Shown here piece by piece: positions 45,529 to 63,812 of a stretch of DNA of 64,000 nucleotides (position 1 is the stretch's first letter; each line of letters starts with the position of its first letter). Source of the stretch: Aulosira sp. ZfuVER01 (lineage in GTDB: Bacteria; Cyanobacteriota; Cyanobacteriia; Cyanobacteriales; Nostocaceae); contig JAVRCV020000006.1 in NCBI GenBank assembly GCA_034530615.2, positions 1-64,000 of the forward strand, read 5' to 3'. The position numbers were made by a program, and so were the translations under genes. A model generated the notes under the pieces. The model was not told the DNA's origin. It made no database searches and saw nothing but the letters and a program-made list of their open reading frames with translations.

Positions 45529-46518
45529 ATGTTTAACAGTAAAACTATTTTAATCACTGGCGGTACAGGCTCCTTCGGCAAGCAATTTGTAAAAACGATT
45601 CTCAGCCGATATCAGCCTCAGAAAGTCATAGTTTATTCCCGGGATGAACTCAAGCAGTATGAAATGGTGCAAGAGTTTAATGCACCAGTGATGCGCTATT
45701 TCATTGGAGATGTGCGCGATCGCGATCGCTTGAGTATGGCTATGCGAGGCGTGGATTATGTAGTTCATGCTGCTGCACTCAAGCATATTCCTGCGGCTGA
45801 GTATAACCCGATGGAATGTATTAAAACCAATATTCATGGTGCGAATAATGTCATTGATGTTGCTATTGAGCAACAAGTGGAAAAAGTAATTGCGCTTTCA
45901 ACAGATAAAGCAGTCAATCCAATTAATCTCTATGGTGCAATCAAGCTAGCTGCTGATAAACTCTTTGTTGCAGCTAACAATATTGTTGGCACAATGAAAA
46001 CTCGATTTGCTGTGGTTCGCTACGGTAATGTTGTCGGTTCAAGAGGCTCAGTTGTACCTTTTTTTCAAAAGCTAATTGCTGAAAAATCTCCAGAAATTCC
46101 AATTACTGACCCACGGATGACTCGCTTTTGGATTACTCTCCAACAGTGCGTTGATTTAGTTTTTAATAGTTTTGAACGGATGCAAGGCGGAGAAATATTT
46201 GTCCCTAAAATTCCTTCAATGAAAATTACTGATTTAGCCGAAACACTTGCACCAGGAGTTCCAACTAAAATTGTTGGCATTAGACCAGGAGAAAAACTCC
46301 ATGAAGCCATGTTTTCTGCTGAATCTTCACATTTAGCCTTGGAATTTGCTGATCATTATGTAATTAAACCGACTATTGAATATAGTAATGCTGTTGATTA
46401 TACCTGTAACACCCTTGGTGAAAAAGGAGCCTCTGTTCCCGAAGGGTTTGAGTATAGCTCTGAGATCAATACAGAATGGTTAAAAGGATTTCAACTACTG
46501 GATATGCTAAAGCAATGA
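45529..46518 (+). CDS. pseB: UDP-GlcNAc 4,6-dehydratase (inverting)
   Basis: [49 protein letters not shown]. Confidence 0.95.
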
Positions 46519-47681
46519 GTGACTATATTCCCTATGGGCGGCAAGATATTAATCAAGAGGATATTGATGCCGTAATTGCCGTTTTACAATCCGATTGGAT
46601 TACTCAAGGCCCAGCGATAGAAAGGTTTGAGCAAGCTGTTGCTAATTACTGTGGATCTAAATATGCTGTAGCAGTTTCCAGTGCAACAGCTGCTTTACAT
46701 ATTTCTTGTCTTGCAGCTGGTTTGGGGCACAATGACATTCTTTGGACATCACCAAATACCTTTGTTGCTTCAGCTAATTGTGGGCTTTACTGTGGGGCAA
46801 AGGTTGATTTTGTTGATATTGACGCCAACACCTACAATCTCAACGTAGATGAATTAGAACGTAAGTTAGCTAAGGCAGCAAAGCAAGGTTATTTACCTAA
46901 AGTTTTAGTACCTGTACATTTTGCCGGGCAATCCTGTGAAATGAATCAAATTGCTGCTTTGTCCCAGCAATATGGTTTCAAAATTATTGAAGATGCTTCT
47001 CACGCAATTGGAGGAAAGTATCAGGGTAAACCAGTTGGTTCCTGTCTATTGTCTGAGATGACAGTTTTTAGCTTTCATCCAGTCAAGATTATTACAACTG
47101 GCGAAGGCGGTATAGTCCTAACAAATCAAGAGGATTTATATCAAAAATTGATGAGATTAAGAAGTCATGGCATAACTCGCAACCTTAATTTAATGCAAGG
47201 AGAATCACAAGGTCTTTGGTATTATCAGCAATTGGAATTAGGCTTCAATTATCGACTGACAGATATCCAAGCGGCATTGGGTACTAGTCAGATGCAACGG
47301 TTGGATGAGTTTGTAGAACGTCGCTGGTTTTTAGCCAACCGCTATAATCAACTACTGCAAGATTTACCATTAATACTGCCGTGGCAACATCCAGATTCCG
47401 AGTCTAGCTGGCATCTTTATGTAATTAGACTCAAGCTAGATAAAATTAATAAAACTCATCGGCAGGTATTTGAAGAACTTAGTCAAGAAAAGATCGGGGT
47501 AAATTTACACTACATTCCAGTTCATACCCAACCTTATTATCAGAAATTAGGCTTTAGCTGGGGCGACTTTCCCCAAGTTGAGAAGTATTACCAGGAAGCA
47601 ATTTCTCTTCCTTTGTACTACAGCTTGACCCAAGAAGACCAAGACAGGGTAGTAACGACACTGCAAAGGATTTTGTTATGA
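46515..47681 (+). CDS. pseC: PLP-dependent sugar aminotransferase
   Basis: [37 protein letters not shown] overlap with pseB. Confidence 0.93.
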
Positions 47682-48427
47682 AAACTGTTGCAATTATTCA
47701 AGCTCGTATGGGGTCTACCCGTCTACCTGGAAAAGTGATGAAAGAGCTTTGTGGCAAAACTGTTTTGGCACATGTAATATTTCGGGTTCAAGCTTGTTTG
47801 TTAATTGATGAAGTGGTTGTGGCAACAACTACATCAAAAACAGATGATGTGATTGTTGTAGAAGCAGAAAAATGTAGAGTAAAGTGGTTTCGAGGAAGTG
47901 AAGAAGATGTTTTAGAGCGTTACTATTTCGCTGCTAAAAAATATAATGCTGATGTAGTGGTCAGAGTAACTTCTGACTGTCCGCTGTTTGACTCTGAAGT
48001 ACTTTCACAAATGTTGGTATACTTCAAACATCAAACATTTGAAGGCTTACAAATAGACTACCTCAGTAATTGCTTGCATCGCAGTTATCCCCGTGGTTTA
48101 GATGCAGAGGTTTTTACCTTTAATGTTTTAGAGAAAGCATTTAAAGAAGCACACAATCCATATGAAAGAGAACATGTTACACCTTATATCTACGAGCATC
48201 CCGAAATATTTGCTTTACATAACCATAGAAACGATGAAGATCTAACTAATTATCGGTGGACTTTGGATACCGAAGACGATTGGAAATTAATAGAAGCAAT
48301 CTATACAGATATATATCAGAATGAAGAAATTTTTACAACTGATGAAGTAATAGCTCTTTTAAGAGCAAAACCAGAATTGGTTAAACTCAATATTCATGTG
48401 AAGCAGAAACAACTTGGTTTTTGCTAG
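47678..48427 (+). CDS. pseF: CMP-nonulosonate synthetase (SpsF-type cytidylyltransferase)
   Basis: QARMGSTRLPGK, RVTSDCP, REHVT, RWTLDT; role inferred from operon context. Confidence 0.8.
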   Translation: MKTVAIIQARMGSTRLPGKVMKELCGKTVLAHVIFRVQACLLIDEVVVATTTSKTDDVIVVEAEKCRVKWFRGSEEDVLERYYFAAKKYNADVVVRVTSDCPLFDSEVLSQMLVYFKHQTFEGLQIDYLSNCLHRSYPRGLDAEVFTFNVLEKAFKEAHNPYEREHVTPYIYEHPEIFALHNHRNDEDLTNYRWTLDTEDDWKLIEAIYTDIYQNEEIFTTDEVIALLRAKPELVKLNIHVKQKQLGFC

Positions 48428-63072: not shown

Positions 63073-63236
63073 GGACAATATAACTCTGAAGCTCACATAA
63101 CGGAAATAAAGTGGATAGAAGCATCTACCCACTTTAAAAACTACTAATTTAGTTCAATACAAACTACACGAAAAATTACTTTGCTATGAAGTGGCTTAGA
63201 CAAACAATACTTTCACGTAGTAAGTGACTGTTTCAC

Positions 63237-63812
63237 TTATTTCAAAGAGACAAAGTTACTAGGACATGAGGGTGAATTAGTGGTGCTGTCGAAATTGCCA
63301 CTAACACTATAGGCAACTACATCTGAACCACTATTAACTCTTGCTGCGGTCGCTTCACATAAAGTAGCTACGGTAGTAGCTTCACTGGTAGAAGCTTGCG
63401 TTGTTACACCCACATTACCTATATAAGATTTGAGAGGTGCATTGGCAAGTACTGTTGCTGCTTGGTTAGTTACTTGGCTGGCGTTAGTAGAACCACCACC
63501 AGAAATTGAGTACTTGTAATTTGTGGTTTGTGTGGCAATACCAAGACCTAGTTTACCAAAGTCAGCTTGAGCAGCAAATTGGTTCTGTTCTAAGTAATAA
63601 GCTTGCTGAGCGCGGTTCATGGAACCTACGTAGGTTTTAGCTTCAGACTGCTTGGCTTTGTTGGCTTGGTTCAAGAAAGAAGGTAGTGCAATAGCAGACA
63701 AAATACCGATAATGATGATTACTACCAACAATTCAATAAGTGTGAAACCTTCGTTTTCTTGTTTTTTGCCGAGAATGTGTTGGATAAATTTAGCTTTCAG
63801 TTCGGTTTTCAT
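63237..63812 (-). CDS. pilA: Type IV major pilin
   Basis: Class III signal ..ENEG|FTLIELLVVIIIIGILSAIALP; C-terminal Cys pair; ATG at 63812. Confidence 0.93.
   Translation of the reverse strand: MKTELKAKFIQHILGKKQENEGFTLIELLVVIIIIGILSAIALPSFLNQANKAKQSEAKTYVGSMNRAQQAYYLEQNQFAAQADFGKLGLGIATQTTNYKYSISGGGSTNASQVTNQAATVLANAPLKSYIGNVGVTTQASTSEATTVATLCEATAARVNSGSDVVAYSVSGNFDSTTNSPSCPSNFVSLK

Follow-up and report, generated by a model that had tools for sequence, protein, structure and literature searches.

A pseudaminic acid gene cassette opposite pilA-ogtA in Aulosira sp. ZfuVER01 and its possible role in strain-variable glycosylation of type IV pili

In Aulosira sp. ZfuVER01, a pseudaminic acid (Pse) operon and the gene for a 2,183-amino-acid glycosyltransferase converge on ogtA and pilA in a 64-kb window, the whole stretch of DNA analysed, on contig JAVRCV020000006.1. 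In relatives, the slot beside pilA-ogtA is occupied by a hypervariable cassette consisting of a TM-TPR head gene, variable nucleotide-sugar genes and modular transferases that end in a domain here called CT. Pse is one of many cassette alleles in this slot. We consider it probable that the Aulosira locus is one allele of a strain-variable pilA-ogtA cassette that builds a short Pse-capped O-glycan on pilin, in the cytoplasm and without a lipid carrier.

Results

The Pse operon of Aulosira sp. ZfuVER01

The locus contains ten co-oriented genes on the forward strand, separated by intergenic gaps of -4 to 245 bp. Open reading frame checks and scans with Pfam and NCBIfam models agreed with the original prediction in the place, order and intactness of the genes that it named, while the operon was found to start one gene earlier than proposed, at 45063-45467. 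Likely ATG starts at 46515 (pseC), 53999 (giant enzyme), 63072 (ogtA) and 63812 (pilA) also correct the earlier reading.

PseB, PseC, PseG and PseI all exceeded their NCBIfam cut-offs: pseB (45529..46518), for an inverting UDP-GlcNAc 4,6-dehydratase, scored 537 bits with TIGR03589 (cut-off 408); the pseC aminotransferase gene (46515..47681) scored 564 with TIGR03588 (cut-off 424); and pseI (52698..53753), for pseudaminic acid synthase, scored 511 with TIGR03586 (cut-off 340). PseG is encoded at 51187..52677 as a hydrolase (TIGR03590, 234 against 154 bits) fused to a GNAT acetyltransferase. The name pseG/H proposed for this gene holds for PseG, and the GNAT part is only PseH-like (TIGR03585, 42.6 against 93.1 bits). 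Similarly, the gene proposed as pseF (47678..48427) encodes a cytidylyltransferase in the PseF role (PF02348, CTP_transf_3, E 3e-35), presumably of the SpsF type, and is not a PseF equivalog (TIGR03584, 36.6 bits against a cut-off of 205.7). The remaining sugar genes encode a WbuX/PseA-type N-acetyl sugar amidotransferase (48469..49683; TIGR03573, 333 bits, cut-off 203), a hisH-like glutaminase paralogue (49691..50308; TIGR01855, 222 bits, cut-off 105) and a WbuZ/HisF2 cyclase-like paralogue of an amidation or amidino module (50317..51075; TIGR03572, 306 against 300 bits; NF038364, 292 against 310). Another hisH copy lies on contig C36 of the same genome. The whole genome, 99.99% complete, holds a single pse set and a single close copy of pilA. 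An lpxC-fabZ-lpxA-lpxB cluster is located 24 kb from the Pse locus.

The absence of wzx, wzy, an ABC exporter and a Maf-type gene from the window, noted in the original prediction, was confirmed by Pfam scans of its main ORFs, a set without five short ORFs, most of them overlapping, that are 100 amino acids long or more. Neither a flippase nor a polymerase, ligase or priming phosphotransferase was found in the window scans, and Maf (PF01973) was not found genome-wide. Elsewhere in the genome there are five Wzy_C proteins over the cut-off, as well as ABC exporters. Across 29 completely seen cassettes, no protein had two or more predicted membrane segments. A lipid-A-linked product is still compatible with the missing flippase.

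OgtA and the pilin

The pilA gene (63237..63812, reverse strand; PF16734 and PF07963) encodes the major type IV pilin and predicted acceptor; three further pilin-like genes are found on contig C31. Directly behind it, ogtA (60832..63072, reverse strand; PF13844 plus TPRs) encodes a TPR-GT41 O-GlcNAc-transferase homologue and predicted priming enzyme. The NHS (N-lobe His) and YK (nucleotide-binding Lys) motifs, read against the SPINDLY alignment, are conserved in the OgtA clade, and we take both residues to have catalytic roles. The GT41 part shows 85% within-clade identity, whatever sugar the cassette makes. A TPR-GT41 gene likewise lies directly behind pilA in S. elongatus and in N. punctiforme (Npun_F0677), to whose loci the present one is homologous. 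The S. elongatus Ogt (Synpcc7942_0051) is described as a cytoplasmic, UDP-GlcNAc-using enzyme that is needed for the GlcNAc signal and the mass of PilA (PMC9306852). Ser/Thr enrichment of the pilin was dropped as a marker of glycosylation because the Ser+Thr fraction gave little signal between groups: 0.197 (n = 8, no ogtA), 0.201 (n = 13, ogtA without CT) and 0.217 (n = 91).

Modules of the giant glycosyltransferase

The giant enzyme (53999..60550, forward strand; Pfam GT4, GT2 and GT41) is composed of N1, N2, GT4, GT2, a helical region, GT41b and CT. An assembly artefact was ruled out because four independent full-length homologues of 2,182-2,196 amino acids occur, in loci L026, L033, L034 and L053. 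N2 (55595..56329) follows N1 in close homologues and appears by eye to have a degenerate GT-A-like fold; it had no match in Pfam or NCBIfam profile scans. Near the 3' end of the GT4 and GT2 domains (56330..58279, Pfam), at about 57.5-58.5 kb, identity switches between L034 and L026, marking a recombination crossover.

The helical region and GT41b (58280..60109) gave SPINDLY/OGT matches (E 9e-21). GT41b forms a second GT41 clade in which the nucleotide-binding Lys is kept and the N-lobe catalytic His is missing, a conserved ETF motif occupying that position in the clade alignment. At about 24% identity to OgtA and in a separate clade, it is not an OgtA duplicate. The proposal that the GT41 domain of the giant enzyme primes Ser/Thr calls for a change: OgtA is the more likely priming enzyme, GT41b being of the other clade and without the N-lobe His of OGT.

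N1 as a candidate nonulosonate transferase

N1 (53999..55594, forward strand) carries a Cys/His cluster at its N-terminus and is predicted to transfer a nonulosonate (Pse) as a member of the KpsC/KpsS/WbbB-like GT-B group. Searches of the PDB by sequence, with both the single sequence and the alignment, gave nothing significant, and fold searches alone were informative. The closest fold to the N1 structure model (pLDDT 93.8) was KpsC, with Z 14.8 and an rmsd of 3.7 over 276 residues. The best five VIA-align rows were all KpsC (Z 13.9-14.8, rmsd 3.7-4.5), whereas generic GT-B rows reached Z 13.7 only at an rmsd of 8-10. Together with the match of PF05159 (Capsule_synth) to 3 of 72 homologues, the window protein itself being unmatched, this fold supports the N-terminal capsule-synthesis-like domain that had been predicted. 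NCBIfam scans gave a weak match to NF046086 (E 5e-5) and weak matches to the KpsS and BFO_1060 models, the latter a link to the Tannerella nonulosonate transferases Tanf_01245/BFO_1060.

All eight N1 rows (seven distinct) lie beside nonulosonate genes, as do all five rows of each of two other N-terminal module families; among the remaining 69 rows, which lack those three families, a synthase was seen in the row's own locus view in one. Nonulosonate-specific variation sits in the N-terminal modules of the cassette transferases, and N1 and the other two modules are candidate new sialyltransferase-like families.

N1 shares a modified GT-B fold with KpsC (GT107), WbbB (GT99) and KpsS1 (GT118), the last a KpsS homologue and proven Pse transferase (PMC12887879). 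It differs from them in its fusion into a multi-domain enzyme, its extra N-terminal Cys/His cluster, an identity of about 15% and the lack of QxxxD, the nucleophile motif defined for retaining ulosonic-acid transferases (PMC12887879). FTSSEDE stands in its place, where the Glu is invariant and the Asp varies; an HP motif and the Glu within an ERG motif are conserved.

CT and the TM-TPR head gene

CT (60110..60547, forward strand) is an unnamed domain of about 130 amino acids that lies terminally in the cassette transferases or between their modules. It had no Pfam, NCBIfam or PDB sequence match, and the only match in an Atlas search was an unnamed cyanobacterial cluster. Its model (pLDDT 84) resembles one Rossmann half of a GT-B enzyme; Foldseek matches were weak, and the best, Asp1 (E 7e-4), was kept as a lead only. 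The head gene (45063..45467, forward strand), absent from the original prediction, encodes a TM-TPR protein of 134 amino acids with a basic N-terminus, one hydrophobic segment and a short TPR-like C-terminus. It had no Pfam match and a weak TPR-protein match in the NCBIfam scan. Orthologues were found in 108 of 151 Nostocaceae genomes, 102 of which also carry CT. A complex prediction for TM-TPR residues 40-134 with CT scored 0.00, which counts neither way.

The cassette slot in relatives

Variable sugar cassettes recur beside pilA-ogtA across Nostocaceae and beyond, as had been anticipated, and the other cassettes in the slot of relatives rule out one unique to the Aulosira strain. In 80 ogtA loci viewed, a CT protein lay within 10 kb in 71 and pilA was present in 78. 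With a CT model built from ogtA-adjacent loci, CT was detected in 105 of 131 ogtA-positive and in 0 of 20 ogtA-negative Nostocaceae genomes, related genomes not being independent; 88 of the 105 had it no more than 15 kb from ogtA, and in 17 it was distant or on another contig. Eight syntenic pilA loci of ogtA-negative genomes (five genera) have an empty slot, without ogtA, TM-TPR or any of the transferases. Since 26 ogtA-positive genomes lack CT and 20 genomes, several of them retaining pilA, lack ogtA, the glycan is not universal.

Of 20 loci viewed outside Nostocaceae, 11 had pilA and ogtA at most 10 kb apart, and one of these held a Pse cassette. In minimal Pse cassettes (L109, L163, L185/186) the recognisable transferases are N1-N2-CT and OgtA only. 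Linkage of pse genes to pilA recurs in other strains without being universal: 4 of 13 cyanobacterial pse clusters are located elsewhere, three of them beside an ABC exporter, so pilus linkage of all such clusters is ruled out.

Promoters and hormogonium expression

A J-box-like extended -10 motif, GGGTATCCT (45000..45008, forward strand), is the predicted SigJ/SigF-type promoter of the cassette (J-box as defined in PMC6495340). The pattern GGG.A...T was present 30-80 bp upstream of the head gene in 42 of 42 regions (shuffles: mean 3, maximum 8). A promoter-like motif, GGGTAAGTT, lies upstream of pilA (63856..63864, reverse strand) and a related one, GGGTAGATG, upstream of ogtA (63130-63122, reverse strand). 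Across loci the pattern was found upstream of 76/80 pilA and 34/80 ogtA genes, compared with 1/64 trxB genes.

In N. punctiforme, Npun_R0691-R0678 are convergent on ogtA (F0677) and were matched to the Aulosira locus solely through product names, gene order and promoter; by annotation and gene order this cassette, with Npun_R0684 as its synthase gene, is nonulosonate-type. In published RNA-seq data these genes rise 11.5- to 215-fold at 6 h, and in a sigJ mutant their expression is 5-20% of wild type (10 of 14 genes computed). There, ogtA is likewise hormogonium-induced and SigJ-dependent, the kinase and phosphatase flanking the cassette do not rise, and pilA is the second most expressed hormogonium gene. 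R0691 is listed as a sigJ gene with a J-box motif and falls, with ogtA and Npun_R0118, in sigJ cluster 12. The SigJ regulon comprises about 200 hormogonium genes (PMC6495340), and co-regulation therefore does not single out PilA. We take Npun_R0118, in the same cluster as R0691 and ogtA, to be pilB.

Discussion

Following the known pathway, PseB, PseC, PseG-GNAT, PseI and the cytidylyltransferase would produce CMP-Pse, and the WbuX/HisH/HisF2 trio would probably give an amidino- or amido-modified form. OgtA, by analogy with the genetic proof for its S. elongatus orthologue, would add the first HexNAc to pilin Ser/Thr; GT41b, GT2, GT4 and N2 may extend the glycan, and the fold and gene linkage of N1 suggest that it adds the Pse cap. 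The co-occurring CT and TM-TPR might, more speculatively, organise the enzymes or deliver glycosylated prepilin to the membrane. SigJ likely switches the cassette on together with pilus genes in hormogonia, as suggested by the published N. punctiforme data and the motif conserved here, and the observed mosaic suggests recombination, through which strains swap sugar genes and the N-terminal transferase module that goes with them. We infer PilA to be the acceptor from linkage, co-loss and co-regulation. Counting against this reading, a glycan of 4-6 sugars on the globular domain of the pilin would have to cross the membrane.

Campylobacter and Helicobacter possess a CMP-Pse pathway with PseA-type amidino tailoring. 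PseB, PseC, PseG and PseI over their cut-offs and the WbuX/HisH/HisF2 trio are common to both systems; Aulosira differs in that neither the PseF nor the PseH model reached its cut-off, PseG is fused to a GNAT domain, Maf was not found and a pilin glycan instead of flagellin is predicted as the acceptor. Lipid-carrier and oligosaccharyltransferase routes are the usual source of the pilin oligosaccharides that have been characterised; the Aulosira cassette has no genes for them. Flagellar glycosylation islands resemble the present arrangement in that a variable island adjoins the filament-subunit gene, as at pilA. In Thermus thermophilus, Pse5Am7Ac is described as ending a short O-glycan on its type IV pilins (PMC7203116). 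Flagellin glycosylation by FlmG or Maf is, as presented in PMC7591256, also cytoplasmic, independent of a lipid carrier and supplied by a nonulosonate donor; here the enzymes would act on a membrane-inserted prepilin, an oligosaccharide is the expected product and the transferases are from different families. For S. elongatus, PMC9306852 describes Ogt and the GlcNAc signal; the Aulosira locus adds an exchangeable cassette, convergent in orientation, with sugar pathways, modular transferases, CT and TM-TPR.

Pse could instead belong to a lipid-linked or secreted glycan, such as an LOS/LPS cap or a side chain of the hormogonium polysaccharide, with its export machinery encoded elsewhere, the placement of the cassette at pilA-ogtA reflecting shared hormogonium regulation. 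KpsC and WbbB, the folds closest to N1, act on glycolipids and polysaccharides (PMC12887879); Wzy_C proteins and ABC exporters are encoded elsewhere in the genome, other cyanobacterial pse clusters lie beside ABC exporters, and HPS genes are likewise hormogonium-induced. We nevertheless judge such a product unlikely: the cassette disappears along with ogtA, the same enzymes contain fused GT41 modules of the protein type (a few of them with TPRs), and published data report no more than moderate sigma dependence for the hps glycosyltransferases, compared with 5-20% residual cassette expression in the sigJ mutant.

OGT-type enzymes often have multiple substrates, and the main targets of OgtA priming and cassette extension might be proteins apart from PilA, such as minor or Hps pilins and further hormogonium surface proteins, or many proteins at once. 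The additional pilin-like genes on contig C31, the weak signal in pilin Ser/Thr content and the pleiotropy reported for ogt mutants (PMC9306852) would fit, yet the adjacency of pilA in 78/80 loci, its rank among hormogonium transcripts and the PilA mass shift described for the S. elongatus ogt mutant (PMC9306852) render this rather improbable. Least likely by far is the direct attachment of a Pse monosaccharide to pilin Ser/Thr by OgtA or GT41b in a FlmG/Maf-like manner, with the other domains doing something else. FlmG, a cytoplasmic TPR and GT-B protein of OgtA-like architecture, does transfer Pse onto flagellin (PMC7591256); against this stand the conservation of OgtA across cassette sugars (85% in the GT41 part), the confinement of nonulosonate-specific variation to N-terminal modules, the use of UDP-GlcNAc by S. 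elongatus Ogt (PMC9306852) and the failure to find a Maf family gene in the genome.

Beyond the Pse-capped pilin glycan favoured for Aulosira, the balance tips slightly towards an undescribed 'pilus serotype' system across Cyanobacteriales. There, a recombining cassette under SigJ control, facing pilA-ogtA, would supply a dedicated membrane TPR protein and assembly-line transferases of up to 2,600 amino acids, with interchangeable modules joined by the new CT domain; a GT41-primed pilin glycan would be elongated in the cytoplasm and given strain-specific caps (Pse, Leg-type sugars, amino-dideoxyhexoses, methyl or phosphonate groups). This would make N1 the first member of a new nonulosonate transferase family, and the hormogonium pili of the model symbiont N. 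punctiforme would carry a sialic-acid-like sugar. As the tractable N. punctiforme has such a cassette by annotation and order, the proposal is testable with existing PilA antibodies and mutants.

If true, it would explain why ogtA lies beside so many different sugar genes, and would take bacterial GT41 glycosylation beyond single sugars, to oligosaccharides built without a lipid carrier on a protein inserted in the membrane. Gliding is driven by hormogonium pili, and it is as hormogonia that Nostoc colonises its plant and lichen partners. A likely consequence is that the motility pili of each strain bear their own sugar coat, and this strain-variable coat would be an obvious candidate determinant of specificity towards partners, phages or grazers.

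Gene content of the pse cassette

Ten co-oriented genes (45063 to 60550) converge on ogtA (60832-63072) and pilA (63237-63812), running from a TM-TPR gene (the head gene; 45063-45467, forward strand, 134 aa) to a 2,183-aa modular glycosyltransferase (the giant enzyme; 53999..60550, forward strand). GC content is 38.2% in this cassette against 41.9% in the first 45 kb of the window. The original prediction of a pseudaminic acid (Pse) operon held for PseB, PseC, PseG and PseI, which score above NCBIfam cut-offs together with a WbuX-type amidotransferase and WbuZ; the cassette cytidylyltransferase failed the NCBIfam PseF model, and the GNAT domain fused to PseG scored short of PseH. 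The source genome carries a single pse set and a single close pilA. Maf was not found in it; elsewhere it encodes several ABC exporters, as well as five Wzy_C proteins that score over cut-off.

The window also encodes a T4 Rnl2-like RNA ligase 2 (2515-3603; PF09414 and PF18043) on a cyanobacterial chromosome, a C5 cytosine DNA methylase with two ORFs of 376 and 219 aa after it that have no Pfam match (21266-24769), possibly a restriction-modification module, and an Omp85, lpxC, fabZ, lpxA and lpxB cluster (14520-21167), which lies 24 kb from the cassette and was regarded as unrelated.

Variable cassettes opposite ogtA and pilA

The comparison covered the 80 best of 280 ogtA loci, most of them from Nostoc. 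pilA was in view at 78 of these 80 and a protein with CT, the C-terminal domain (~130 aa) of the giant enzyme, at 71, three of the nine loci without CT being short contigs; pseI lay within 10 kb at 10. Variable sugar cassettes, whose recurrence beside pilA-ogtA had been proposed as a check, do recur: in a scan of 88 of 131 representatives the convergent genes differed by strain, comprising DegT aminotransferases, FdtA, WbqC, methyltransferases, PEP mutase, NeuA/NeuC and pse genes. Cassette transferases range from ~770 to 2,600 aa in many combinations of modules, and no protein with at least two predicted membrane segments was detected in 29 end-to-end cassettes using a crude hydropathy window.

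The first module of the transferase tracks the cassette sugar. With adjacent fetched stretches counted, nonulosonate genes accompanied N1, the first module of the giant enzyme, in 8 of 8 rows (7 distinct), and each of two unrelated first-module families in 5 of 5. A fourth family was accompanied by a cytidylyltransferase in three of four rows; one of the remaining 65 rows had a synthase inside its own view, these views being of limited extent.

The locus is mosaic. Identity between the window and relative locus L034 was 88-97% at 52.5 to 58 kb (mostly 93-97%) and 70-90% past 58.5 kb; with L026 it was 69-89% at 54.5-57.5 kb and 88-97% downstream of there. Because this pattern switches within the giant gene, a crossover is placed there. 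An OgtA tree was built for 59 rows, restricted to the 11 labelled groups; placing the 11 module labels on it takes 34 changes, against a minimum of 10 and a shuffled mean of 42.8, and the N1 label takes 4 changes for 5 rows.

Several further alleles were observed. Those that carry a PEP mutase with an NTP-transferase domain and a cytidylyltransferase-like gene (L058:15173-19165; L213) suggest a phosphonate-decorated glycan. A legionaminic-type allele (L027:12431-22231; L075) carries NeuC over cut-off, a NeuA-type gene, a CBS-nucleotidyltransferase and a different first module, beside an OgtA 88% identical to that of the window. Two pilin genes occur at L107/L108, L113, L112 and L128, flanking both cassette ends in L107/L108 and L113, and tandem ogtA copies in several genomes (G022, G082, G139, G140). 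At many loci the gap that separates ogtA from the convergent giant-enzyme gene holds small mobile genes, xisH/xisI-like pairs among them (for example L034:12527-13221 and L110:3886-4628).

Domains of the giant enzyme

The giant enzyme comprises N1, N2, GT4 and GT2 modules, a helical region, a GT41 domain and CT. The capsule-synthesis-like domain of the original prediction is supported for N1: Pfam Capsule_synth matched 3 of 72 homologues found at E ≤ 1e-5 and not the window protein, and the predicted N1 model (pLDDT 93.8) had KpsC as best structural match (Z 14.8, rmsd 3.7, 276 residues), with WbbB at Z 12.6; generic GT-B enzymes matched at similar Z, but with rmsd of 8-10. N1 retains the HP motif and invariant Glu, and does not keep the QxxxD nucleophile motif as defined in PMC12887879. 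It weakly matches (E 5e-5) the BFO_1060 family, members of which are named nonulosonate transferases in PMC5420450. Relatives of N1 were viewed at 24 metagenome loci; 14 have nonulosonate genes in view, most of the remaining ones are short contigs, and three seem to be repeats of genome loci. A second N1-like protein was not found in the source genome. At the N-terminus of N1 (window 53999-54250) and of non-cyanobacterial relatives, a conserved His/Cys cluster (H, CxG-x4-C, CxxC) may form a metal site, unusual among glycosyltransferases.

With ~24% identity to OgtA, the GT41 domain falls into a second GT41 clade; it has kept the Lys and lost the N-lobe His. The cassettes also contain a third clade. 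A stand-alone CT-TPR-GT41 gene of this third clade (703 aa; L126:7576-9687, source-genome contig C36) lies far from the cassette, and in other strains (L079, L184) such a gene is the last before ogtA. CT had no family or PDB sequence match; its predicted fold resembles half of a GT-B enzyme, with Asp1 as a weak top match.

Co-occurrence with ogtA

Among 151 Nostocaceae genomes, ogtA is present in 131 and CT in 105, every one ogtA-positive; the distance between CT and ogtA is at most 15 kb in 88 of the 105, and where CT sits apart the head gene usually shares its contig. Head-gene orthologues, among matches listed at E ≤ 1e-27, occurred in 108 genomes (102 with CT, 6 without); three CT genomes lacked the head gene and 40 genomes lacked both. 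These counts overstate significance because kin are not independent. pilA was found in eight of ten ogtA-negative genomes searched, and 7 of 8 retrieved regions were syntenic. At those seven and in G102, ogtA, head gene and transferase are all absent from the slot that separates pilA from the FHA kinase, a co-loss distributed over five genera. On its left the slot is bounded by a conserved pair, a zinc-ribbon PP2C phosphatase and an FHA Ser/Thr kinase (window 40384-43869), which is retained where ogtA and cassette are lost.

Twelve ogtA-positive, CT-negative loci carry small methyltransferases at most. At eight such loci (L149, L150, L154, L158, L151, L152, L156, L157) ogtA-pilA is accompanied by no more than small methyltransferases or FkbM methyltransferases, possibly a minimal methylated-HexNAc system. 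Across a phylum sample, CT occurs in 85 of 401 genomes; outside Nostocaceae, pilA and ogtA lay within 10 kb at 11 of 20 loci viewed, one with a Pse cassette (L216).

Linkage of pse genes to pilA

Of the 151 genomes, 13 encode a PseI that exceeds its cut-off. In six (G000, G113, G125, G133, G036, G015) pilA-ogtA lies within ~16 kb of pse, and in G043 pse sits in a head-gene/CT cassette with pilA-ogtA on a different contig. Four have pse elsewhere (adjoining an ABC exporter in G027, G102 and G112; also G052); in G120 and G132 pse is at contig ends. In two more genomes, G086 and G148, the slot contains pseB and pseC together with a synthase that scores below cut-off. Pse clusters unlinked to pilA in other strains were to count against the original prediction; the link recurs and 4 of 13 clusters lie elsewhere, and that counter-evidence was therefore half obtained. 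The pse genes serve other glycans too. A separate NeuB-like synthase type (open frames ~750 aa; G134, G147, G133 contig C108, G019, G148 contig C153) scores below the PseI cut-off and is located away from pilA.

Promoter motif and expression

The motif GGG.A...T, which agrees with the published J-box of SigJ promoters (PMC6495340), was present upstream of 42/42 head genes (shuffle mean 3, maximum 8), 76/80 pilA, 34/80 ogtA and 1/64 trxB genes. Supplementary files 1 and 2 of PMC6495340 place Npun_R0691-R0678 convergent on ogtA, followed by a kinase and phosphatase; the products include CapD, DegT, two acylneuraminate cytidylyltransferases, a GT28 protein, neuraminate synthase and a group 1 glycosyltransferase. 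The equation of these genes with the window cassette rests on their names, order and promoter rather than on sequence. Computed from those data, ten of them rose 11.5- to 215-fold at 6 h and stood at 5-20% of wild-type level in the sigJ mutant; the neighbouring kinase and phosphatase did not rise in N. punctiforme hormogonia. R0691, with a J-box, and ogtA are both assigned to sigJ cluster 12 (PMC6495340).

Discussion

The analysis itself demonstrates mosaicism, linkage and co-loss, the gene identities, the folds and the promoter motif. Ogt acts on PilA in S. elongatus (PMC9306852), and published data establish SigJ-dependent expression (PMC6495340). The cassette product would be CMP-Pse carrying an amidino or amido substituent; OgtA would prime, the giant enzyme extend and N1 cap the glycan. 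PilA would be the acceptor, which we consider fairly probable. Counting against this mechanism, the pilin Ser/Thr signal is flat and some lineages retain pilA without the cassette system. What CT and the head protein do is a matter of speculation, as is the way in which a glycosylated prepilin would pass the membrane.

Pse-capped pilin glycans are already known from Thermus (PMC7203116), as is cytoplasmic Pse transfer by FlmG (PMC7591256). Neighbouring ogt and pilin genes were reported in 77 of 201 cyanobacterial genomes (PMC9306852; adjacency also in PMC13759059), and the nonulosonate survey PMC8157484 took in two cyanobacteria. Full-text literature searches, with subscription literature mostly outside their scope and partly among the best 20 of 62 matches, returned no description of the cassette, of Pse on cyanobacterial pili or of Npun_R0678-R0680. 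The locus is a real and widespread extension of the known Ogt-PilA system, and apparently one undescribed so far.
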